A stretch of 64,000 nt of DNA from Escherichia coli (lineage in GTDB: Bacteria > Pseudomonadota > Gammaproteobacteria > Enterobacterales > Enterobacteriaceae): the NCBI RefSeq assembly GCF_009931435.1, contig NZ_CP043414.1; one strand, 5' to 3'. A model generated the notes under the pieces. It did not search any database. It had not been told where the DNA came from and was given only the letters and a program-made list of their open reading frames with translations. Made by a program: the position numbers and the translations under genes. Each line of letters opens with the position of its first letter. The stretch's first letter is position 1. Shown here in pieces: positions 32,310 to 54,107 of the stretch.

Positions 32310-32482
32310 AAAGTTCTTTTGTGTTGCATTGCTGGCGTAAATGTCAGCAATGCAGCATTTCCTCACGATTCTCCTTTGACGATCGCACTTTTTGCTCGTT
32401 ATGATGGCGTCGCTAGCCTCAGTAAATCCTTACTCCGGCGGTGCGCAACCCGTGCGCGTGAACCACTATCTGAATGCTCATC

Positions 32483-33416: not shown

Positions 33417-33590
33417 GGTAGGCAGGATAAGGCGTTTACGCCGCATCAGGCATTCGGAGCACAATGCCTGATGCGATGCTTGCGCATCTTATCAGGCCTA
33501 CAAACGTGACGCGTCCGTAGGCAGGATAAGGCGTTCACGCCGCATCCGGCATTCGGTGCACGATGCCTGATGCGATGCTTCTATTTGCAT
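33417..33590. repeat. BIME: at least three REP units
   Basis: Repeated ggataaggcgtt(t/c)acgccgcatc and gcctgatgcgatgct cores seen directly. Confidence 0.6.
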
Positions 33591-53086: not shown

Positions 53087-53169
53087 AAAAAAACCTGCTG
53101 GTGAGGCAGGTTCTTTTATTTACTACTTTCAGGCCTAACACCACGGCCTGTGCAACATCGTGTTCCAAC
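53087..53169 (-). ncRNA. orzO: Predicted antitoxin sRNA (OrzO-like), about 83 nt
   Basis: Minus-strand -10 TATAAT at 53176-53181 and -35 TTGCAA at 53199-53204; intrinsic terminator hairpin plus U7 at 53087-53111; 5' region (53151-53169) is near-complementary to the zorO 5' UTR (53317-53335). Boundaries inferred. Confidence 0.4.
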
Positions 53170-53175
53170 GAACGA

Positions 53176-53226
53176 ATTATAACCACCGCTGGACCCCGTT
53201 GCAATTAAGATAATGAGATTTATAAT
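53176..53226. promoter_or_regulatory. Back-to-back divergent sigma70 promoters sharing a palindromic -35 TTGCAA (53199-53204): rightward -10 TATAAT 53221-53226 (zorO), leftward -10 53176-53181 (orzO)
   Basis: Spacers of 16 and 17 bp seen directly; predicted zorO transcription start near 53234 gives a 174-nt leader. Confidence 0.5.
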
Positions 53227-53407
53227 CCTGACAGTTGGGAGGTTGCGCCGGATCGAACCAATTTCAAGTCCTGGCTACCGGACGGGTGGTGCTGCAGGTG
53301 GTGCCCTGATCCGGAGTGCAACATCGTGGTCCAACATACGTAAACCAGTATCGACAGGCAGTGTAAGGGTAAGGTGCTGGTGTTGCGCTCCTTAATAAGG
53401 AGAGCGG

Positions 53408-53497
53408 ATGGACACGCTGACACAAAAGTTAACCGTGCTCATTGCCGTACTGGAGTTATTAGTGGCTCTGTTACGGTTGATTGATTTGTTGAAGTAA
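53408..53497 (+). CDS. zorO: Type I toxin, 29-aa hydrophobic peptide MDTLTQKLTVLIAVLELLVALLRLIDLLK (ZorO-like, Ldr-related)
   Basis: Hand-translated small ORF with a single transmembrane helix, long structured leader and intrinsic terminator; matches my recollection of ZorO. Confidence 0.7.
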   Translation: MDTLTQKLTVLIAVLELLVALLRLIDLLK

Positions 53498-53683: not shown

Positions 53684-53779
53684 TAGATCGCAGAAAATAA
53701 AAGAACCTGCTGGTGAGGCAGGTTCTTTTATTTACTACAGTGACGCTAACTTGCTGATTGTGCAACATTTCGTACCAAC
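53684..53779 (-). ncRNA. orzP: Predicted antitoxin sRNA, second copy (OrzP-like)
   Basis: Same architecture as copy 1: -10 at 53786-53791, shared -35 at 53809-53814, terminator hairpin 53694-53714; pairing region 53762-53779 matches the zorP leader 53928-53945. Confidence 0.4.
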
Positions 53780-53785
53780 GAATAA

Positions 53786-53836
53786 ATTATAACCATATCC
53801 ACACTCCATTGCAATTCAGTGAATGAGATTTATAAT
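53786..53836. promoter_or_regulatory. Divergent promoter pair of copy 2 (shared -35 TTGCAA 53809-53814; -10 elements 53831-53836 and 53786-53791)
   Basis: Identical geometry to copy 1. Confidence 0.5.
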
Positions 53837-54017
53837 CCTGCCCGTTGGGAGGTTGTGCCGGATCGGACCAATTTTAAGTCCTGGCTGCCGGACGGGTGGT
53901 GCCGCAGGCGGTGCCCTGATCCGGAGAGCAACGTTTCGTACCAACATACGTAAACCAGTATCGACAGGCAGTGTAAGGGTAAGGTGCTGGTGTTGCGCTC
54001 CTTAATAAGGAGAGCGG

Positions 54018-54107
54018 ATGGACACGCTGACACAAAAGTTAACCGTGCTCATTGCTGTACTGGAGCTATTAGTGGCTCTGTTACGGTTGATTGATTTGTT
54101 GAAGTAA
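54018..54107 (+). CDS. zorP: Type I toxin, second copy; identical 29-aa peptide with synonymous changes (ZorP-like)
   Basis: Hand-translated; 174-nt leader from the predicted transcription start near 53844. Confidence 0.7.
   Translation: MDTLTQKLTVLIAVLELLVALLRLIDLLK

Follow-up and report, generated by a model that had tools for sequence, protein, structure and literature searches.

Divergent promoters around a single palindromic -35 hexamer in a zor/orz toxin-antitoxin locus of Escherichia coli

Identity and organization of the locus

[quoted passage not shown] The following parts of the two copies could be delineated:

53087-53169, minus strand: Orz antitoxin sRNA of copy 1, OrzP-type, ~83 nt (Rfam OrzO-P, RF02083, 98.9 bits, 53087-53162)
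53234-53407, plus strand: zor 5' UTR of copy 1, 174 nt, the length being taken from PMC5397157; Orz pairing site at 53316-53335
53408-53497, plus strand: zor toxin ORF of copy 1, 29 aa, MDTLTQKLTVLIAVLELLVALLRLIDLLK, identical to the published ZorO peptide (PMC6669753)
53699-53779, minus strand: Orz antitoxin sRNA of copy 2, OrzO-type (Rfam OrzO-P, 87.3 bits, 53699-53772)
53844-54017, plus strand: zor 5' UTR of copy 2, 174 nt; OrzO pairing site at 53928-53945, that is, +85 to +102
54018-54107, plus strand: zor toxin ORF of copy 2, 29 aa, the same protein as in copy 1 and ZorO

The two matches to the Rfam OrzO-P model are both on the minus strand and above its gathering score of 60. [quoted passage not shown] In copy 1 this antisense target is visible as a direct repeat (D1, 53150-53174 against 53316-53340, 88% identity), and the 3' end of Orz is formed by an intrinsic terminator hairpin at 53092-53112. 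The genomic position is also that of the family, the locus being flanked by yehM/yehL and, at its opposite end, by yehK/yehI, as judged from the ORFs and from how the best E. coli match is annotated; Fozo et al. (2010) had placed z3289/z3290 between yehL and yehK (PMC2887945). Comparison with the cloning and probe oligonucleotides of Wen et al. (2014) assigns copy 1 to the orzP type and copy 2 to the orzO/zorO type. The toxicity of Zor and its rescue by the cognate Orz are experimental findings on zorO/orzO of strain EDL933, with respect to which the protein encoded in the window is identical and the sRNA 5' end near-identical.

No complete E. coli genome is more than 98.2% identical to this region, for which 5,232 of 5,426 genomes have a match, with the zor ORFs and orz sRNAs unannotated in this intergenic region in all RefSeq (PGAP) E. 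coli records examined. Copy 1 encodes ZorO although its sRNA and promoter spacer are of the OrzP type; the neighbour of orzP in EDL933 encodes ZorP (T3S). The 76-nt Rfam model begins 7 nt downstream of the experimental +1 in both copies (53162 against 53169, and 53772 against 53779), and hence omits GTTGGAA or GTTGGTA, bases that belong to the 18-nt seed for pairing with zor. Elsewhere in the window, gathering-level Rfam matches on the plus strand comprise a Peptidase-S11 RNA motif (32398-32478, 72.8 bits) and naRNA4/CssrE (33421-33498, 76.9 bits), neither of which is related to the promoters.

Geometry of the divergent promoters

The elements of the two promoters of each copy, as located by inspection of the sequence and a consensus scan, are as follows:

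53176-53181, minus strand: orz -10 box of copy 1, ATTATA, read as TATAAT on the minus strand; -12 to -7, also supported by the start derived from oligonucleotides
53199-53204, either strand: palindromic TTGCAA of copy 1, -35 to -30 of both the orz and zor promoters; centre of symmetry between 53201 and 53202
53221-53226, plus strand: zor -10 box of copy 1, TATAAT; -13 to -8, also supported by the published UTR length
53786-53791, minus strand: orz -10 box of copy 2
53809-53814, either strand: palindromic TTGCAA of copy 2, the common -35 element
53831-53836, plus strand: zor -10 box of copy 2

The initial annotation had noted a self-complementary TTGCAA with a leftward TATAAT at 17 bp and a rightward one at 16 bp, together with the recurrence of this geometry in a second copy. 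Both observations are borne out to the base, the spacers being 17 bp on the orz side and 16 bp on the zor side in either copy. Its further assignment of the two promoters to a toxin and an sRNA, with TTGCAA as the -35 element of both, is in agreement with the published annotation of the zor/orz locus. The two -10 boxes of one copy are 39 bp apart and the divergent starts 65 bp apart. Each of the four promoters matches the consensus at 10 of 12 positions, none has an extended -10 element in the consensus scan, and all have the configuration expected of sigma-70 promoters, namely hexamers 16-18 bp apart and a start 5-9 nt past the -10 box.

The hexamer by itself is not enriched in the 64-kb window, with 22 matches against ~37 expected. 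To count the arrangement, we required that a hexamer agree with TTGACA in at least 4 of its 6 bases whichever strand is read, and that divergent -10 boxes, each with at least 5 of 6 consensus bases, lie 16-18 bp away on its two sides. Such a shared -35 arrangement occurs in the 64 kb only at 53199 and 53809, against a mean of 0.017 in a Markov-1 control, which rules out chance as its explanation. A comparison of the 64 palindromic hexamers showed that the highest possible match to TTGACA is 4/6, which TTGCAA attains, and that it is the sole palindromic hexamer with TTG in both readings; these three bases are the most important ones of the -35 element.

Certain other features of the region were also considered. 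The zor spacer of the OrzP type contains a -10-like GATAAT (53209-53214 in the window), 12 nt upstream of the real -10 box, which is not conserved, given that copies of the OrzO type have GTGAAT or GTGAGT in its place. An origin of the module through inverted duplication was rejected, as inverted-repeat similarity between the arms is limited to the hexamers and to the GTTGG at each +1. The zor spacer as an A/T-rich UP-like element for orz was likewise discarded: this fits most E. coli copies but fails in one Escherichia sp. (L016), with the spacer TTCTGCAGGCGAGATT.

Transcription start sites

Fozo et al. (2010; PMC2887945) used primer extension to map where the two mRNAs and the two sRNAs begin, and Figure 1A of Wen et al. 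(2014) marks the mapped starts and boxes the predicted -35 and -10 elements. The orz +1, as read from the oligonucleotides EF537, EF541 and EF790 of Wen et al. (2014), falls at 53169 in copy 1 and 53779 in copy 2. In EF541 an AatII site stands right after TATAAT and ahead of GTTGGAACACG, which gives the orz +1 of copy 1, while EF537 and EF790 give the 5' end of OrzO as GTTGGTACGAAATGTTGC; the G of the latter is the +1 because the AatII site of the vector sits between TATAAT plus 6 nt and GTTGG. The zor +1, counted back from the 174-nt 5' UTR (PMC5397157), falls at 53234 in copy 1 and 53844 in copy 2. With the latter as +1, the OrzO pairing site is exactly where the EAP region (published as +73 to +102) comes to its end, as described in PMC5397157, and the distance of the copy 2 pairing site from the ATG (72-92 nt) agrees with that in PMC2887945.

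These starts lie 7 nt (orz) and 8 nt (zor) past the -10 boxes, and the distance of each from the palindrome centre is exactly 32.5 bp, the sum being made up of 17 + 6 nt on one side and 16 + 7 nt on the other. With 65 bp between them and TTGCAA at their midpoint, the starts place the hexamer at -35 to -30 of either promoter. Inconsistency of the mapped starts with the -10 boxes, named in the initial annotation as grounds for giving up its promoter assignment, was not found on comparison with the published positions, with both boxes fitting their starts. The divergent transcripts both begin with GTTGG, and the pseudo-symmetry of the region thus runs from the -35 hexamer to the starts, with unrelated spacers in between.

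Conservation across copies

Copies were collected with the Orz terminator, and not the promoter, as anchor. Of the 19 copies obtained, E. whittamii contributed two; the others came from the window, from nine E. coli loci and from two other Escherichia species with ~91% identity to the window in their flanks. The pattern ATTATA-N17-TTGCAA-N16-TATAAT is present in all 19, across four Escherichia species. Among the 12 distinct versions none of the 18 hexamer columns varies, whereas variation is seen at 12 of 17 positions of the orz-side spacer and 8 of 16 of the zor-side spacer (20/33 in total; Fisher p = 1e-5). A genome scan with a 19-mer of the Orz terminator recovered, outside E. coli, three Escherichia species and eight unrelated chance matches only. 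In a metagenome scan in which the two -10 flanks were fixed and 28-32 free bases were allowed between them, leaving the -35 unconstrained, 25 of 25 zor/orz-like copies had a 30-bp gap with TTGCAA in place; three unrelated chance matches were also recovered.

Table 3 of Shore et al. (2024) gives, for 2,439 loci, a conservation of 99.4% for the -35 (TTGCAA) of both Zor and Orz, and of 100% and 99.8%, respectively, for their -10 (TATAAT). As there is a single TTGCAA between the two -10 boxes, the two entries of that table must refer to one and the same hexamer, and the shared -35 is, at the level of sequence, already in the literature (PMC11264685). The same authors found the promoter hexamers of sodA, araC and ompC to be 100% conserved in E. 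coli. Within-genus conservation of hexamers being the norm for working E. coli promoters, the invariance of TTGCAA argues only weakly for its dual use.

Loci with orz alone, as in MG1655 and strain GENOMIC22-004, retain the full two-way module and a stub of the zor leader. Their two-way promoters lie at 2204337-2204402 in MG1655 and at 1677-1770 of the GENOMIC22-004 locus (L002), with the orphan zor promoter aiming antisense into the 3' end of yehK. The orphan Orz copy of MG1655 is expressed and has mapped 3' ends: the Term-seq tables of this strain (Adams 2021 supplements) list 2204446 and 2204485, and no minus-strand signal for the zor remnant. The position 2204485, 111 nt upstream of yehL, corresponds to ~53086 in the window and matches the terminator. 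At the locus of NZ_CP145663.1 (L003, 748-1585), an IS1A is inserted in the orz-side spacer; orz, its -10 box and the genes on the yehL side are gone, and TTGCAA, the zor -10 box and the zor leader stub survive beside yehK.

Predicted exclusive occupancy and possible coupling of the two promoters

Sigma region 4 contacts the -35 element as duplex, and the open complex of RNA polymerase protects approximately -55 to +20. At zor/orz, sigma region 4 would read the same 6 bp in either orientation, and the footprint would extend over ~53179-53254 for a polymerase on zor and over ~53149-53224 for a polymerase on orz, with the stretch 53179-53224 common to both. The distance of 65 bp between the starts, the shared TTGCAA and a footprint of this size together suggest that the two promoters would not be occupiable together. 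The two sides are predicted to be unequal: the orz spacer is of the optimal length of 17 bp and is followed, from -10 to +1, by A/T-rich bases (TCGTTC or TTATTC), whereas the zor spacer is 16 bp long and the corresponding bases are richer in G/C (CCTGACA or CCTGCCC). Given that this asymmetry in spacer and discriminator favours orz, the polymerase should pick the antitoxin direction more often. Such a bias would suit a system that needs an excess of antitoxin, and would be consistent with the abundance of Orz RNAs in exponential phase (PMC2887945).

Coupling of toxin and antitoxin through polymerase competition, as proposed in the initial annotation, is a reasonable if speculative hypothesis, with an effect that may be small in size. 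In an exclusive-binding model, removal of orz would raise zor by a factor of ~1/(1 - orz occupancy), which would be negligible unless orz were heavily occupied; toxin transcription would be measurably lowered only if the orz promoter were occupied for a large fraction of the time. At the shared -10 promoters studied by Warman et al. (2026), weakening one direction gave no rise in the other, and competition was seen only once one direction was strengthened or activated, when expression noise also changed (PMC12825309). As competition in that class requires one direction to be strong, any coupling at zor/orz would depend on occupancy. The zor/orz promoters may be strong enough to compete, in view of their match to the consensus at 10 of 12 positions and their perfect -10 boxes, and by virtue of the same boxes both might tolerate loss of the -35. 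On the other hand, zor is already heavily controlled after transcription, through its leader structure, processing, and Orz together with RNase III (PMC5397157 among other sources), and coupling at the level of transcription may for this reason add little. In its strictest form, the proposal would have RNA polymerase dock obligately at each zor/orz copy in one direction or the other and never in both, with initiation anticorrelated in each cell, the 17/16 asymmetry setting the odds, and a weaker antitoxin promoter releasing the toxin; this we put forward tentatively, as an unlikely account of the locus.

The words "palindrome" and "bidirectional", and "sharing" of the promoters, are absent from the zor/orz texts in the open-access literature searched, and the idea of polymerase competition at this locus appears undiscussed, at least in that literature. 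The same search found no promoter mutagenesis of zor/orz, and a 2025 review describes the regulation of the locus as still to be deciphered. If the competition is real, it would provide a built-in control of the toxin/antitoxin ratio and a source of cell-to-cell variation in the toxin. It would also amount to a transcription-level switch on top of the RNA-level control, and would place a class of promoters with a shared -35 beside the bidirectional class with a shared -10. If there is no competition, the arrangement is just a compact fit of two promoters in 51 bp.

Alternative interpretations of the palindrome

The hexamer could really be used by one promoter only, most likely orz, with the other running mainly on its consensus -10 box and the palindromy being a functionless by-product. 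Both -10 boxes are indeed perfect TATAAT, TTGCAA matches the -35 consensus at just 4 of 6 positions, the 16-bp spacer of zor is sub-optimal, and invariance of such a hexamer within Escherichia is not unusual. However, the TTG and CAA halves are both invariant while the adjoining spacer bases vary freely; in a one-way promoter, positions 4 and 5 (C and A), being non-consensus, would be free to drift or to improve to TTGACA and never do so. The mapped +1 positions are, moreover, exactly equidistant from the centre of symmetry. We accordingly regard one-sided use as quite improbable.

Two further possibilities appear to us highly improbable. The palindrome might be the core of a site for a dimeric regulator controlling both promoters, as would befit a perfect palindrome centred in a divergent control region and the invariance of TTGCAATT over 8 bp, and the literature names no regulator of zor/orz; yet the symmetry is limited to 6 bp, reaching 8 bp in copy 2 alone, typical dimeric operators are much longer, the orz-side flanks are the most variable part of the region, and a search for an inverted repeat around TTGCAA found none. 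Alternatively, the coupling might be positive, with divergent transcription adding negative supercoils in the 65-bp region and thereby easing the opening of both promoters. This proposal draws on the twin-domain supercoiling model for closely spaced divergent promoters. The two promoters would not be loadable together, so that the effect would have to act after one polymerase has left, and opening is unlikely to be limiting as the -10 boxes are consensus and A/T-rich. Use of the one TTGCAA as the -35 element of both promoters is by far the most probable interpretation.

Comparison with known systems

The closest counterpart of the window is zorO-orzO/zorP-orzP of EDL933 (E. coli O157:H7; Fozo 2010; Wen 2014, 2017; Shore 2024), which represents the same locus, with the same position, 29-aa toxin, sRNAs, hexamers and starts. 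It differs in that both window copies encode the ZorO variant, whereas ZorP of EDL933 has T3S.

[quoted passage not shown] Unlike zor/orz, tisAB is under LexA control and lacks an assigned -35, and the published shoB promoter (GTGACC/TAAAAT) is ~70 bp from the ohsC promoter (TTGTAA/CATAAT), with no shared -35. In the shoB/ohsC region of MG1655 (L023, 663-713), TTGTAAA contains TTGTAA on the plus and TTTACA on the minus strand, with divergent -10-like boxes. This was entertained as an instance of the same architecture and rejected, given that the two scan hexamers are offset by 1 bp and the published shoB promoter lies elsewhere, ~70 bp away. Consensus scans of the tisB/istR and dinQ/agr regions revealed no hexamer common to divergent promoter-like sites.

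Mutual influence of polymerases at closely spaced divergent promoters, as may be possible at zor/orz, is seen with PR and PRM of phage lambda. Their starts are, however, ~82 bp apart, their -35 boxes are separate, both can be occupied, and they are under the control of CI and Cro. The mtrR/mtrCDE region of Neisseria gonorrhoeae likewise has divergent sigma-70 promoters whose -35 regions adjoin or overlap, and at which a change in one promoter shifts the polymerase to the other; it differs in its distinct -35 sequences, in the binding of the repressor MtrR and the activator MtrA, and in being a pair of a regulator and an efflux pump.

The bidirectional promoters with a shared -10 (Warman et al., NAR 2026; PMC12825309) are akin to zor/orz in that one pseudo-symmetric element is readable either way by RNA polymerase. 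In that class the two orientations are mutually exclusive, and competition between them is a possible means of regulation and noise control (PMC12825309). The differences are structural: the starts of the shared -10 promoters are 18, 10 or 23 bp apart and their -35 boxes are separate, whereas zor/orz has a shared -35, starts 65 bp apart and separate -10 boxes. It consequently falls outside the bidirectional promoters as defined by Warman and Grainger, which have a shared symmetric -10 with the starts in or beside it, and separate divergent promoters are not classed by these authors as bidirectional (PMC12825309). By analogy, zor/orz may nevertheless work in a manner similar to the shared -10 class.
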